The notes under the pieces were generated by a model. That model searched no databases, was not told the DNA's origin, and was given only the letters and a program-made list of their open reading frames with translations. Below are positions 29,216 through 64,000 of a stretch of DNA of 64,000 nt, piece by piece; positions within the stretch are counted from its first letter, which is position 1, and every line of letters starts with the position of its first letter. The position numbers and the translations under genes are program-made. Source of the stretch: a virus. The stretch lies in the IMG/VR virus record IMGVR_UViG_3300036846_000488, positions 17,257 to 81,256 of that record; one strand, given 5' to 3'.

Positions 29216-29270
29216 CCCCCGGCCTCCTTACTCACACGGTAAGTCCACTGTCTCCTGGCACAGCTATGTC

Positions 29271-29299
29271 TTGTGCGCATGTGGTGTATGGGCTATACT
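29271..29299 (+). promoter_or_regulatory. Sigma-A promoter P1
   Basis: TTGTGC-N17-TATACT. Confidence 0.8.
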
Positions 29300-29305
29300 G
29301 GAGTC

Positions 29306-29400
29306 ATCCAGTTAACTGGATCGGAGTCACCTGGTTAAGTCTCCTGCTGAGGAGCACCAGCACTCCCGAACAGGCCGGACCCTCTGGGGTCTGGCCCTTG
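29306..29400 (+). ncRNA. Candidate small RNA 1 (two hairpins + terminator)
   Basis: ATCCAG-TTAA-CTGGAT; GGAGT/ACTCC + CTGGT/ACCAG + CTCCT/AGGAG; GGCCGGACCC/GGGTCTGGCC. Confidence 0.6.
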
Positions 29401-29426
29401 TGCGTTTGTAGTGTTTTTGATATACT
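29398..29426 (+). promoter_or_regulatory. Sigma-A promoter P2
   Basis: TTGTGC-N17-TATACT, hexamers identical to P1. Confidence 0.82.
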
Positions 29427-29431
29427 GGACA

Positions 29432-29548
29432 CAGTGCTTCAGAGCCCCACGCCCTGAGCACGACCCGATCCTTCGGCCCCATGCGGGGGGATCGGGGGTA
29501 GGCCCGGTGTCGGTGAGTATTCGTACTCTTCGACACTGGGCCTTTTTT
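29432..29548 (+). ncRNA. Candidate small RNA 2 (twin CCCAY-loop hairpins + terminator)
   Basis: Hairpins 29434-29461 and 29464-29496, long terminator stem 29500-29543 with T6; G-U pairs favour the plus strand. Confidence 0.68.
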
Positions 29549-29578
29549 CATGTCCGGATACCCATGAAAGGACAACAG

Positions 29579-29803
29579 ATGACCCAACAGATCACCTGCG
29601 TGAAGTGTGGCTCAGACAGATTCCGTGCAGGAGAGATCGAGCTCAGTGAAGACGGCGGGTTCATCGTCGTCATGCCATGTACCGAGTGCGGTACCCCCAA
29701 CAAGCTCATCCAGAGCGACGACACGGAGTTCGCCCAGCTGCTGCTGGAGTTCTTCCAGATCGCAGGCCCGGGGAAGTTCGAGCACAAGCTGGGGCCGTCG
29801 TGA
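29579..29803 (+). CDS. Zinc-ribbon protein (74 aa)
   Basis: CVKCG...CTECG; GAAAGGA RBS. Confidence 0.72.
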   Translation: MTQQITCVKCGSDRFRAGEIELSEDGGFIVVMPCTECGTPNKLIQSDDTEFAQLLLEFFQIAGPGKFEHKLGPS

Positions 29804-33420: not shown

Positions 33421-33849
33421 GTGATCGAGTACTACGACCGCGATGGCCGACCTCTCGATCGGGAGTCAGCGTGGGCTCTGCTGGTGGACTATGACTACAA
33501 ACGGGTCGATCTCACCGAGGTCGGCCCGTACGTAGTCTCCACGGTCTGGTTGGGGTTGGACCATCGCTACATGGGCGAGGGTCCACCCCTGATCTTCGAG
33601 ACCATGGTCTTCACCAACTCGGCCTGGAATGCCGATCGGGCGGACGAGAACCGGGAACTGCTCCTGGAACTGGACTGCCAGCGGTACAGCACCCTCCAGC
33701 AGGCCCAGGAGGGCCATCGGGCGATGGTTCTGCTGGTAGAGGCCACATTGGACGAGGAGGTGCCGACCGAGGCCTCAGAGGGCGTTTTAGGCCCTCAGGA
33801 GCTGAAAAGTAGTGTTTTGAGTTGTATGTGGTGCCTAAATACCCTATAA
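33421..33849 (+). CDS. Conserved phage hypothetical protein
   Basis: VSTVWLGLDH...P..FETMVF...RY.T...A..GH. Confidence 0.75.
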   Translation: MIEYYDRDGRPLDRESAWALLVDYDYKRVDLTEVGPYVVSTVWLGLDHRYMGEGPPLIFETMVFTNSAWNADRADENRELLLELDCQRYSTLQQAQEGHRAMVLLVEATLDEEVPTEASEGVLGPQELKSSVLSCMWCLNTL

Positions 33850-33850
33850 T
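33822..33850 (+). promoter_or_regulatory. Sigma-A promoter P3
   Basis: TTGTAT-N17-TATAAT in an AT-rich patch. Confidence 0.82.
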
Positions 33851-33855
33851 TAAGG

Positions 33856-33940
33856 GGTCAGGGCGACTGCATACCCTGATATCGGTCCTCCCAGACCGAC
33901 ACGGAGAACCCCCGTCAGATACCTCTGGCGGGGGTTTTCG
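33856..33940 (+). ncRNA. Candidate small RNA 3 / attenuated leader
   Basis: TCAGGG/CCCTGA; TCGGTC-CTCCCA-GACCGA; terminator AACCCCCGTCAGA/TCTGGCGGGGGTT-TT. Confidence 0.6.
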
Positions 33941-33980
33941 TGTGTTTGAACCTCAACCAGAACGCCCGAAAGGGGTAGCT

Positions 33981-34481
33981 ATGAAGACCAACATCACGGA
34001 GATCTACCGGATCGAGACCATGAACTCGACCTACGAGATCAAAGTCGTGGAGAAGGACGGAAAGATCGCCTCGCTCTGCAAGAAGATGGGCCTGGACCAG
34101 GAGAAGCACCAGGTCAAGGCGAACGGCACCGAGTACCTAGACCGGCTCTTCATCGGAGCCTCGTTCAAGGTGCCCGGCGTGGTCACCACCTCTGTGGTGA
34201 CCGACTACAGCCACTTCGTCCTCTCCACGAAGCCGAAGGCCAGGGTCACCGGTCCCGATGAGCACCTGCTCACCCCGGTGGTCGAGGCCATCAAGGAGCA
34301 GCTCAACCCGACCGCTGTGATGCTCGACGACCGAGCGGCGGTCGAGATCTGCGGGATCGACGGCTGTCAGGTCGAGCGTGTCCCCGGTCTCCCTCGGCAC
34401 GAGGGGTTTCCGGGGTGCAAGTCCGGCAGCATCGCCTCCGGTGGGGCTCGTTCCCACTGCTCCTGCGACTACTGCTACTGA
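33981..34481 (+). CDS. Hypothetical protein with a C-terminal Cys/His domain
   Basis: Start MKTNITE; C...C...H...C.SG...HCSCDYCY. Confidence 0.75.
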   Translation: MKTNITEIYRIETMNSTYEIKVVEKDGKIASLCKKMGLDQEKHQVKANGTEYLDRLFIGASFKVPGVVTTSVVTDYSHFVLSTKPKARVTGPDEHLLTPVVEAIKEQLNPTAVMLDDRAAVEICGIDGCQVERVPGLPRHEGFPGCKSGSIASGGARSHCSCDYCY

Positions 34482-36374: not shown

Positions 36375-36515
36375 TGAGCGGTGGGCGGCCCCACTCCCCC
36401 TAGGGCCGCATGGGCCCACCGTTCACGTTCGTTATGACAGGGGGTCATAGCCCGTCGTTCACGACACCTCCGGGGGGTGGAGTCGTGGGCGGTGGAGGGT
36501 GACCCCACTTCACCC
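36375..36515 (+). ncRNA. Structured intergenic element (four hairpins)
   Basis: GTGAGCGGTGGGC/GCCCACCGTTCAC, TATGAC/GTCATA, CACGAC/GTCGTG, GGTGGAG/CTTCACC. Confidence 0.45.
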
Positions 36516-44915: not shown

Positions 44916-44944
44916 TTCCTGTTGTGTCGTGTTTGTGATACAAT
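44916..44944 (+). promoter_or_regulatory. Sigma-A promoter P4 (extended -10)
   Basis: TTCCTG-N17-TACAAT with TGn extension. Confidence 0.72.
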
Positions 44945-44949
44945 AGGAG

Positions 44950-45068
44950 CGTGCCTTAGTAAGACCTGGGCACATGCAGGATCCACACCTCGACGAGGTG
45001 GGAGCGACGCTCTGCGAGATCCTGTTGAAGTACGGCCCTCACCGCTCAGATAGCGGTGGGGGCTTTTC
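44950..45068 (+). ncRNA. Candidate small RNA 4 / leader with GAC-triloop hairpins + terminator
   Basis: GTGCCT/GGGCAC; CAGGATC/GATCCTG enclosing two GAC hairpins; GGCCCTCACCGCT/AGCGGTGGGGGCT-TTT. Confidence 0.62.
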
Positions 45069-45108
45069 TCATGTCCGCACCTCGACGAGGTGGGAGCGAC
45101 GCTCTGCG
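44986..45108. repeat. Perfect 31-bp direct repeat (44986-45016, 45078-45108) bracketing a terminator
   Basis: CACCTCGACGAGGTGGGAGCGACGCTCTGCG twice. Confidence 0.95.
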
Positions 45109-45150
45109 CGACGTGTGAGATCTACAACAACCCTGAAGGGAAGTACGACA

Positions 45151-46158
45151 GTGAGTACTGTCACCGCTACACCCGCCGGCCCGTCCATCCGGACCCGCGT
45201 CGGCGAAGTCCTCAAGAACTGGGGCAAGAAGGTGCCGCCCATCGTCAAGAAGGCCGGTAACTGGTTCACGACCGCGCTCAAGAAGAGCGGCGGTTTCCTC
45301 AAGAAGGCCGGCAAGTGGGCCCTCGAAGCCAAGGCCACGCAGTGGGTCATGGACAAGGCCAAGCCCGCCTGGAACAAGGCATGGCCCATCATCAAGGGTC
45401 CGATCCTCTGGGTCGCGACGCCAGTGCTGGTCGTGCTGGCCCTGCCGAAGGTCGTGCTCATCTGCCTCGGCGCACTCCTGGTCGGGCTGATCTTCGCCAT
45501 GTGGCGTATCTCTAGGTCTCGGAAGAAGAACGCCAAGACCTACACCGATGCCGAGTGGGACGCGATCACCGATGTCATCGGTCACTCCAAGACCGCCTAC
45601 ACGTCCACGGTCAACGGCCAGTCCAAGACCGAGTTCGGCGAGATGAAGATCACCGGGAACGCCAAGGGTCGGATCAAGGTCTACTGGCGCGCTGTCCCGG
45701 ATGTGGTCACCACCACTCCGACATCTCGGTTCCGGACCACACACCACACCGAGAGCGAGGACCAGCTGCAGGAGCGGCTGAACACCGCACTCGGCGAGGC
45801 CGGAAACGTCAATGGGCTGACCCTCACCGGTGAGCCCACGGCGGGCGAGACCATCGCCTTGCGGTACAGGTTCCTCGACCAGCAGGCCAAGCTGGCCGGC
45901 CAGAACATGGACACTGACCTGCTGTCCGAGGTCATGGGCCGGATGAACTTGATCGAGGTCCGAACCGGGATGACCCAAGGGAAGATCAAAGCGGATGCCA
46001 AGGCTCAGCTGATCCATGGCGATCTCCGTCAGTGGCTCACCGAGACCTTCCCGAAGACGGACTGGAAGTGGGATCTGATGTACAAGGCGGCGGTCAACGA
46101 GAGCACTCGGCTCAAGAAGCTCGCCGAGATGCAGGAGGAGTTGGCTCCCGCCAGCTGA
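45151..46158 (+). CDS. Membrane protein (Lys/Trp amphipathic N-terminus, long hydrophobic hairpin)
   Basis: GTG start MSTVTAT with GAAGGG RBS. Confidence 0.78.
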   Translation: MSTVTATPAGPSIRTRVGEVLKNWGKKVPPIVKKAGNWFTTALKKSGGFLKKAGKWALEAKATQWVMDKAKPAWNKAWPIIKGPILWVATPVLVVLALPKVVLICLGALLVGLIFAMWRISRSRKKNAKTYTDAEWDAITDVIGHSKTAYTSTVNGQSKTEFGEMKITGNAKGRIKVYWRAVPDVVTTTPTSRFRTTHHTESEDQLQERLNTALGEAGNVNGLTLTGEPTAGETIALRYRFLDQQAKLAGQNMDTDLLSEVMGRMNLIEVRTGMTQGKIKADAKAQLIHGDLRQWLTETFPKTDWKWDLMYKAAVNESTRLKKLAEMQEELAPAS

Positions 46159-46166
46159 TCCTCACG

Positions 46167-46196
46167 AGGGGAGGGGCTCGGGCCCCTCCCCTTTTC
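46167..46196 (+). terminator. Intrinsic terminator
   Basis: AGGGGAGGGGC/GCCCCTCCCCT-TTT. Confidence 0.75.
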
Positions 46197-46222
46197 CATG
46201 TCACAACCAGAAAGGAGTCGTA

Positions 46223-61652: not shown

Positions 61653-62087
61653 TCAGCCGTTCTCGCTGAAAGGGATGTCCAGCCCCCGGTTGTTGAGCTC
61701 GACGGCGTTCCGGAACAGCACCATCACGTCACCGCGAGACCAGTCGTCTGAGTCCCAGATCGCCTTGGCTTGGACAGGAGACATCTCCGGGTCCACCGAG
61801 CAGGCCGCGATCAGCGCCGGCGCGAAGGAGTCGATGTCGAAGCTGGATCCCTCGGCTCGCTGCTCCGGCTTCGGCGGGTGCTTGGCCACCAGGCGGTCGT
61901 AGGCACGCATCCCGATCGCCTGGTACTTCAGAGTCACCTCGGTGCTCCCGCCGTCCTCATCGGAGAGGAACAGCGAGAACTCCGTGGTGGATCTGGGCTT
62001 GTTGACCAGCTGGTCCAGGGTGGCCCGCTTGGACTCCTGAGCCTGCTTCTGACGTGCCTCGACGGTCTTCGCGGTGGAGTTCGGCAT
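61653..62087 (-). CDS. Tail assembly chaperone
   Basis: L.A.HPP...F.PALIAAC...W..G....LF; between the major tail and tape measure genes. Confidence 0.87.
   Translation of the reverse strand: MPNSTAKTVEARQKQAQESKRATLDQLVNKPRSTTEFSLFLSDEDGGSTEVTLKYQAIGMRAYDRLVAKHPPKPEQRAEGSSFDIDSFAPALIAACSVDPEMSPVQAKAIWDSDDWSRGDVMVLFRNAVELNNRGLDIPFSENG
61668..61674 (-). other. Programmed -1 frameshift heptamer C CCT TTC
   Basis: X XXY YYZ in the zero frame; -1 frame reads FQRERLRKDRNFYLEM into the downstream ORF. Confidence 0.85.
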
Positions 62088-63730: not shown

Positions 63731-64000
63731 ATCAACCCGGTGACCTCGAACCTGCGCGTAGCGCGCAGCTCGCCGGCCTTGGCGATGGTCTGGATCTCGT
63801 ACCGCTTCCCCAGCATCTGGTCGTCGGTGGGCGCGGTCAGGATGGTCACCTGGTCGTAGCGCTTGATCTCGACCGCGGTGTCCCAGGGGATCGAGAGGTT
63901 GGTGTTCATCTGGTAGATATCGGCGTCCCCGACCACCACGGACTGAGCCGAGGTGACCTCCCAGATCCGGCAGCGGCCCTCGTAGAGGACGGTGGCCACT
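63727..64000 (-). CDS. Head-tail adaptor/stopper (5' end outside window)
   Basis: YEG.CRI...L.IP......D.V.I....D..L.G..Y.I. Confidence 0.7.
   Translation of the reverse strand, partial: VATVLYEGRCRIWEVTSAQSVVVGDADIYQMNTNLSIPWDTAVEIKRYDQVTILTAPTDDQMLGKRYEIQTIAKAGELRATRRFEVTGLM

Follow-up and report, generated by a model that had tools for sequence, protein, structure and literature searches.

A promoter followed by a short terminated transcript and then a long operon is an arrangement known from the pR'-6S RNA-tR'/Q and N/nut boxB systems of phage lambda and from the put system of phage HK022. Transcription control and small RNAs are poorly known in actinophages, and to our knowledge no function has been assigned to the abundant early noncoding RNAs of the well-studied mycobacteriophages. 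In the cluster A mycobacteriophages, the Pleft promoter gives rise to an abundant and stable noncoding RNA, with a drop of more than 90% in transcript level ahead of the first genes (PMC5712189). Another class of phage RNA element, the RNA anti-CRISPRs (Racr), has been described as solitary repeat units that sit close behind strong phage promoters (PMC10651486).

Here we describe an intergenic cassette of an uncultivated 81-kb soil actinophage, in which a predicted transcript of about 115 nt, RNA2, lies between a promoter and the first of a long series of rightward genes. On balance we favor the view that RNA2 is a promoter-proximal attenuator or terminated leader of the rightward early genes that would yield an abundant short early RNA, and it would then be a previously unannotated example of the promoter-proximal terminated leader RNAs of phages. 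The likeness to lambda and HK022 lies in a promoter followed by a short terminated RNA ahead of an operon, in hairpins placed between promoter and terminator and, for lambda Q, in a TGTRGTGT word within the promoter spacer, which is where Q-binding elements sit. Unlike in those systems, no Q or N homologue and no boxA or boxB was found in the window phage, the hairpins of the cassette are not common to the cassettes within the genome and are missing in relatives, and dependence of read-through on a factor is only a possibility. With the Pleft RNA of cluster A phages (L5, D29 and StarStuff; PMC5712189), RNA2 has in common an actinophage early promoter and a promoter-proximal noncoding RNA ahead of the first protein genes. 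The Pleft RNA, however, is about 500 nt long and has no evident stem-loop terminator, whereas RNA2 is about 115 nt long and has a canonical one; the two RNAs share no sequence similarity, and the window phage has tandem copies of the cassette.

Results

The phage genome and its relatives

The window (the whole stretch of DNA that was analyzed, 64 kb) covers most of an 81,256-bp IMG/VR record that is rated complete, with a GC content of about 63%, and among public sequencing runs the DNA of this phage was found in one soil metagenome run, probably that of the source sample, and in no RNA run listed. Three related contigs (L464, L465 and L467) span the junction of the record's two ends, running without interruption from its last bases (G000; window positions 63987-64000) into its first. 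The nominally linear record is therefore a complete genome that is circularly permuted or was opened at an arbitrary point. Among cultured phages, its DnaB-like helicase has the nearest relatives in Gordonia and Brevibacterium phages, at only 28-29% identity.

RNA2 lies in a divergent intergenic region (29216-29578). To its left are leftward genes, namely an 85-aa ORF and those for a collagen-like protein, DnaB and a primase, and to its right about 21 kb are taken up by small rightward genes, nearly all without known families in Pfam and PHROGs. By blastn the region had no match among 50,697 cultured phage records, and a search against Rfam returned no family up to E = 10, with matches at chance level only. 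The same kind of Rfam search with the region of one relative, L307, returned a tRNA-like insert, described below, and otherwise chance-level matches only.

Homologous regions were gathered from viral and metagenome contigs by means of the helicase as an anchor and of conserved DNA words. This gave ten distinct relatives (L307, L310, L300, L303, L241, L302, L203, L309, L308 and L304), with the window as the eleventh sequence; a search for related loci with the first rightward ORF as query found no relatives. Degenerate patterns (two copies of GCCCCAYGC, the promoter P2 and the stretch following the terminator T2) matched metagenomes mostly by chance, and filtering by blastn and nhmmer added L241, L203 and partial copies. 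A combined pattern of hairpin hp2 and T2 retrieved the known relatives, one chance match in a coding region (L343) and nothing else.

Layout of the cassette and its promoters

All eleven phages share one layout, which runs from promoter P1 through RNA1, hairpin T1, promoter P2, a 5' hairpin, optional modules and terminator T2 to a small upstream ORF (uORF) with a Shine-Dalgarno site and the first ORF. In the window, a motif scan places P1 at 29271-29299 (+ strand), with TTGTGC, a 17-nt spacer containing TGTGGTGTAT, and TATACT; its counterpart in the relatives reads TTGAC(A/C)-N17-TAnnnT with TGT(A/G/C)GTGTAT in the spacer. Behind P1 lies RNA1 (29305-29403, +), which consists of three stacked helices and the hairpin T1 (at about 29370-29402). 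RNA1 is the best-conserved RNA of the region, better conserved than RNA2: RNAalifold and pair counts on the eleven sequences give a paired fraction of 95% of cells and changes on both sides in 17 of 26 pairs, and none of 500 shuffles was as good. A covariance model of RNA1 (R1) finds exactly one copy per relative and no RNA1-like copies elsewhere, and RNA1 has no match in Rfam. It could act in cis and control read-through at T1 and T2, or it could be a small RNA in its own right. A pairing in which the RNA1 segment GGGGCACCGG would serve as antiterminator partner of the 5' arm of T2 was rejected because the two do not covary, and L302 and L304 change RNA1 and not T2.

P2 (29398-29426, +) has a -35 element TTGTGC at 29398-29403, a 17-nt spacer and an extended -10 element, TG-a-TATACT, at 29418-29426. 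Its -35 element, which is also the 3' flank of T1 (CTTGTGC), is invariant in all eleven homologues, and its -10 element conforms to TAnnnT in every one, at a spacing of 17-18 nt. Given this position, the 5' end of the transcript is predicted at the base of the first hairpin, hp1. A motif scan of the window found promoters of the P1/P2 class at 29271, 29398, 33822 and 44916 only, and the two distal ones head further cassettes of the same design (33817-33981 and 44916-45150, both on the + strand), each with a promoter, a 5' hairpin, more hairpins, a terminator, a ribosome-binding site and an ORF. That the same succession of promoter, hairpin, terminator, ribosome-binding site and ORF recurs at 33822-33981 and 44916-45150 argues for the leader reading. 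The 394-aa ORF listed from 44974 probably has its true start later, at a GTG near 45151 that follows GAAGGGAAG.

The promoters also have short words in common. TGT(A/G/C)GTG(T) occurs in the spacers of all four early promoters (29280-29287, 29407-29414, 33827-33833 and 44925-44932, +) and within the P1 and P2 spacers of the relatives, and in the cassettes at 33817-33981 and 44916-45150 the spacer word takes the form GT(G/C)GTG. A related word, (C)GTAGTG/GTGCYTYAG, lies 3' of the -10 element at P2 and at the 44916 promoter. These promoter-associated words could be an operator or an element bound by a factor.

Fold, terminator and coding status of RNA2

From P2 and T2, RNA2 is predicted to extend from about 29433 to the U-tract at 29543-29548 (+). 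The minimum free energy and centroid folds of 29432-29548 both show hp1, hp2 and a terminator hairpin, and the fold energy of -69.4 kcal/mol compares with -43.6 +/- 4.0 kcal/mol for 200 dinucleotide shuffles (z = -6.5), none of which folds as well as the native sequence. The apex of the 5'-terminal hairpin hp1 (29434-29461, +) is the loop CCCAC closed by a G-C and a C-G pair, under which lies an A*C 1x1 mismatch. In the accessory hairpin hp2 (29464-29496, +) the same two pairs close the loop CCCAU, the mismatch below is G*G, and the 3' arm reads GCGGGG. The folds thus agree exactly with the initial annotation, which had drawn two hairpins at these positions with the same GC-CCCAY-GC apex over a 1x1 mismatch. 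The 9-mer GCCCCAYGC has three copies on the two strands of the 64-kb window, against 2.6 expected; two of the three are the apices of hp1 and hp2, 32 nt apart, and we estimate at about 0.002 the chance that another copy would lie on the same strand no more than 40 nt away.

T2 (29500-29548, +) has the form of an intrinsic terminator, with a GC-rich hairpin of 44 nt (29500-29543) at about -31 kcal/mol and a U6 tract at 29543-29548. A strong terminator with a U-tract is found in all eleven homologues, and in eight of them the lower stem of T2, CCCGGTGTCGG/CCGACACCGGG, is conserved in sequence. The leaders themselves vary irregularly in length (112-224 nt), and none of their reading frames is open in all eleven phages. 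For the same reason, frames that are not conserved across homologues, we rejected as genes both a 130-aa ORF at 29411-29803 and a minus-strand ORF at 29327-29587; attenuation by a leader peptide starting at the AUG in the hp2 loop was also rejected, as inspection by eye showed a different ORF length and frame in each relative. With a promoter, a terminator and hairpin folds conserved in eleven phages and no conserved frame, the earlier proposal of a discrete small RNA is supported.

A conserved translation start follows the terminator

One base past the U-tract of T2 begins a uORF (29550-29567, +) with the codons AUG UCC GGA UAC CCA UGA, encoding the peptide MSGYP. The stop codon, UGA, shares bases with the AUG that follows (as AUGA) and with the Shine-Dalgarno sequence GAAAGGA (29566-29572). 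The stretch after T2, consisting of the U-tract, a C, AUG UCC RGA... and GRAAGG, is conserved in all eleven phages, the uORF always starting with AUG-UCC/CCC, and in six relatives the stop of the uORF overlaps the Shine-Dalgarno site or the AUG. Within the window, a U-tract followed within 1-3 nt by C-AUG-UC(C/A) is found after three terminators (29543-29581, 45064-45115 and 46192-46200, +). At T2 and at 45064 the C-AUG-UC opens a tiny uORF, and at 46192 a 231-aa ORF that has no Shine-Dalgarno site begins with it. This module may be a translation start that depends on the U-tract, or a coupling device.

The first rightward ORF (29579-29803, +) encodes a protein of 74 aa with a CxxC...CxxC motif and no match in Pfam or PHROGs. 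A CxxC protein of 66-74 aa is also encoded by the first ORF of L241, L203 and L303, so that four phages including the window have it in this position. The remaining seven have a 123-aa protein (two phages) or one of five other unrelated proteins, which makes at least six unrelated protein families in the first position across the eleven phages. Because the cassette stays constant while the first gene varies, we read it as a portable expression leader that would serve whichever gene follows.

The gap between T2 and the first ORF is about 30 nt and holds no promoter-like site that we could recognize in its sequence, and a consensus promoter scan of the next 4 kb past T2 found none. Since there is neither room nor signal for a promoter after T2, T2 must be read through for the first gene to be expressed. 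RNA2 is thus tied to a conserved uORF and Shine-Dalgarno site and to the gene that follows, which makes it at least a cis-acting leader.

Variation of the hairpins among relatives

A 5' hairpin lies within a few nucleotides of the predicted start in all eleven homologues, and its loop varies. CCCAC is confined to the window and its closest relative, L241, and the other loops include ACCUGUG, CCUGU, CAUGU and CCGCA. As to the second position, hp2 is present in six phages (the window, L241, L307, L300, L203 and L310), L303 and L304 have second hairpins unrelated to it, and L302, L309 and L308 have no second hairpin at all. Among its carriers hp2 is well conserved, with 91% of cells paired in the alignment of the six (41-55% in slid controls, and none of 500 shuffles as good) and with 7 of 14 pairs changed on both sides in one count and 10 pairs in another. 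The stem below the apex thus covaries, and the sequence CCCCAUG is the same in all six carriers. The apex reads AC-CCCAU-GU in L310 as against GC-CCCAU-GC elsewhere; a purine-purine mismatch under the apex and an extended lower stem are found in the window, L241, L307 and L310, and the stems of L300 and L203 are uninterrupted.

By the terms of the initial annotation, loops that differ among homologues would have refuted its interpretation. The hp2 loop is conserved wherever hp2 exists and the hp1 loop is not, and a bivalent design with two identical heads is not conserved, given the variable hp1 loops and a second hairpin that is absent in three relatives and unrelated in two. Paired identical heads are thus no family trait and belong to the window and its closest relative. 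Hp2 itself is a conserved, dispensable and clade-specific module outside the conserved core. What remains of the suggestion of a protein decoy is hp2 alone, as a candidate for mimicry of a CRISPR-repeat hairpin (see below), with no support for the two-headed version. Most likely, then, these sequences represent a transcription-control leader in which an RNA module is optional, and not a decoy built for two heads.

In L307 the slot of the leader that holds hp2 also houses an insert. Between hp1 and hp2 lies a tRNA-like element of 66 nt (L307:3118-3183, - strand) that scores 48 bits with the Rfam tRNA model. Its acceptor, D and T arms are intact, but of the anticodon arm there is only a stem of 4 bp and a loop of 3 nt, and the element is not called by ARAGORN.

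An invariant loop on a covarying stem is what one might see at the binding site of a protein, and the CCCAY pentaloops of hp1 and hp2 could be the site of an RNA-binding regulator, either an antiterminator of the boxB/N type or a translational repressor, that acts at T2 or the start region. Like nut sites, both hairpins are placed after a promoter and before a terminator, and in the window, L300 and L302 the word CCCAUG appears again at the uORF stop and Shine-Dalgarno site. Against this, none of the other cassettes (29271, 33822 and 44916) has the GCCCCAYGC apex, so that one factor could not serve all of them, and a candidate protein was not identified. Moreover, five relatives keep P2, T2 and the uORF and lack hp2, which is therefore not needed for the core function of the cassette. 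A nut site shared by all cassettes can be rejected on these two grounds, the apex being found only here and hp2 being absent in five of eleven phages, and we give the regulator-site explanation in general little weight.

The same loops had also been taken as seeds of a base-pairing RNA directed against ribosome-binding sites. A small RNA acting in trans, with C-rich loops that pair with the G-rich ribosome-binding sites of host or phage mRNAs, would be expected to be stable, and RNA2 has the promoter, the terminator and, as predicted, the protected ends of such an RNA; its C-rich loops are predicted to be unpaired, and that of hp2 is conserved in six phages. It resembles 6C RNA, RNAIII and the CsrB sponges in being a small structured RNA with a repeated loop motif. 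It differs from 6C RNA and CsrB in having just two CCCAY loops, one of them conserved, which are neither the CCCC runs of the 6C fold nor GGA, and Rfam returned no match to 6C or any other small RNA family. The one conserved loop is itself missing from five of the eleven phages, and CCCAU would pair with AUGGG rather than with the Shine-Dalgarno sites of the phage (GAAAGGA and AAGGAGG). Finally, duplex energies of hp1 and hp2 with the initiation region of their own phage are no better than those of shuffled sequences in all eleven genomes. The anti-ribosome-binding-site seed accordingly found no backing in pairing with the phage's own start region, and we consider a trans-acting base-pairing RNA of this kind very improbable. 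An antisense action of the P4 CI type on the start region was likewise rejected, since duplex energies of RNA1 or of hp1/hp2 are no better than for shuffled RNA.

Two further C-rich loops had been pointed out in the window, and both are present. The one near 33877 is the loop of CGGTC-CTCCCA-GACCG, inside another cassette of promoter, hairpin and terminator, and the one near 36392 lies in a terminator-like hairpin, at 36390-36400; neither has the GC-CCCAY-GC apex.

Resemblance of hp2 to CRISPR repeats

Among the matches listed, type I-E and I-C CRISPR repeats contain the core of hp2, CCCCATGCGGGGG, without a change. We scanned 185,579 prokaryote genomes (one per species) for CCCATGCGGGGG repeated at a period of 50-68 nt and obtained at least 120 loci, of which nearly all of those listed are true arrays. 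Among these listed matches, the I-C-like repeat GTCGCCCCCCATGCGGGGGCGTGGATTGAAAC is widespread, and I-E-like repeats with a 61-nt period, from Actinomycetota, have the form ..TTCCCCGC-CCAT-GCGGGG-GTG..., as in Streptomyces oceani (GTGCTCCCCGCCCATGCGGGGGTGTTCCG), Glycomyces harbinensis (GAATTCCCCGCCCATGCGGGGGTGGACCG) and Acidimicrobiales MAGs (GTGTTCCCCGCCCATGCGGGGGTGAGCC). Two-copy matches in L416 and L406 were rejected as CRISPR arrays, being G/C-rich tandem repeats; that of L416, a MAG of Actinomycetota (L416:6860-7000, - strand), is a repeat of GGGGGGATGGGGGG...CCCCCCATGCGGGGGGTCACCGGGGG with a period of 63 and a sequence resembling hp2.

This likeness raises the possibility that hp2 is a Racr-like decoy that mimics the repeat hairpin of a host type I-E (or I-C) system, a role that could coexist with that of a leader and that we regard as rather unlikely. 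RNA2 would then be made early and in excess from P2, be freed by T2, and bind Cas6e or other Cascade subunits, diverting them from the real crRNAs. Hp2 has the GC closing pairs of the repeat, its CC(C)AU loop and its entire 3' arm, GCGGGG-G, and the repeat-like portion is exactly the portion of hp2 that is invariant. The identical core amounts to 13 nt in the window; in L300 it is 16 nt long, and the hp2 of that phage (TCCCCGCCCCCATGCGGGGGATGAG) matches at 22 of 25 positions with a score of 32, compared with a maximum of 26 in shuffled sequence. L300 is, however, the only phage to outscore shuffled genomes; the window's own alignment score of 26 is no better than theirs, and a site within a coding region scores higher. 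In the window the 5' arm is degenerate (UUCGGC as against CCCCGC), the loop is one nucleotide longer than that of the repeat, and pairing of the flanks lengthens the stem. In addition, the repeat was found with the sequence of hp2 itself as query, and GC-rich hairpins are then subject to a look-elsewhere effect.

The setting of hp2 is that of the published solitary repeat units in several respects. The -10 element of P2 lies about 45 nt upstream, well inside the promoter distance of at most 250 bp, and hp2 stands alone, accompanied by neither an array nor cas genes; apart from it, GCCCCAYGC occurs nearby only at the apex of hp1. It is also accessory and clade-specific, as is typical of anti-defence cargo. 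Like the Racr elements (PMC10651486), then, it is solitary and near a strong promoter, with a loop and 3' arm that correspond to the core of I-E/I-C repeats; unlike them, it is similar over 13-22 nt and not over the full repeat, and it falls under the published cut-offs. With those of SRUFinder (at least 90% repeat coverage and 41.1 bits; PMC10651486), all six hp2 copies fall below when compared with the repeats holding CCCATGCGGGGG (at least 120 loci). No neighboring acr gene was recognized. Spacers of the listed array loci match the phage and its relatives at 25-26 of 32 positions at best, which is not significant after correction for multiple testing.

One of these spacers, from the I-E array of Glycomyces harbinensis, matches the tail-gene region of the phage at 25 of 32 positions (window about 61804-61835; L362:691-722), and the relatives L464-L467 at 25-26 of 32. 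We take this as a weak hint that related phages may infect Actinomycetes with a Glycomyces-type repeat.

A broader version of the decoy idea would make the cassette a launch pad for anti-defence RNAs, with hp2 as an I-E Racr, other decoys in the same slot, and RNA1 deciding the read-through of T1 and T2. The tRNA-like element of L307 and the unrelated second hairpins of L303 and L304 would be those other decoys. We think it unlikely that all of this holds.

Discussion

Our preferred reading of RNA2 remains that of a terminated leader. Its promoter, folds and terminator are conserved, it is noncoding, it is linked to a translation start, and its downstream cargo is variable. In the sequence of events that we envisage, host RNA polymerase would start at the second of two tandem sigma-A-type early promoters and make RNA2, and most transcripts would stop at T2, one base ahead of the uORF. 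Hp1 and the T2 hairpin would protect the two ends of the RNA, which would accumulate as a result, and the downstream genes would be expressed by regulated or leaky read-through of T2. The start and stop of RNA2 at the predicted sites, the efficiency of T2 and the regulation of its read-through are the parts of this model that we infer from sequence. Our analysis identified neither an antiterminator protein nor a recruitment site that is shared, and the rightward genes have no recognizable families.

The invariant CCCCAUG loop of hp2, and the fact that T2 has a stem and loop conserved in sequence, suggest something beyond stability or termination, and a released RNA2 that also acts in trans would be compatible with its being a leader. 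A terminator after every early promoter would make such RNAs the first products of infection, and the RNAs themselves could be the purpose of the arrangement. If hp2 is merely a hairpin of the leader, the cassette is ordinary phage regulatory anatomy. If it is truly a repeat mimic, RNA anti-CRISPRs would extend to actinophages, and hp2 would be a diverged mimic of the kind that current pipelines based on repeat similarity overlook. The region offers a compact case, with eleven homologues, two tandem conserved promoters, a structured RNA and a terminator behind each of them, and a portable translation start, and it is suited to the study of early-gene timing in actinophages.
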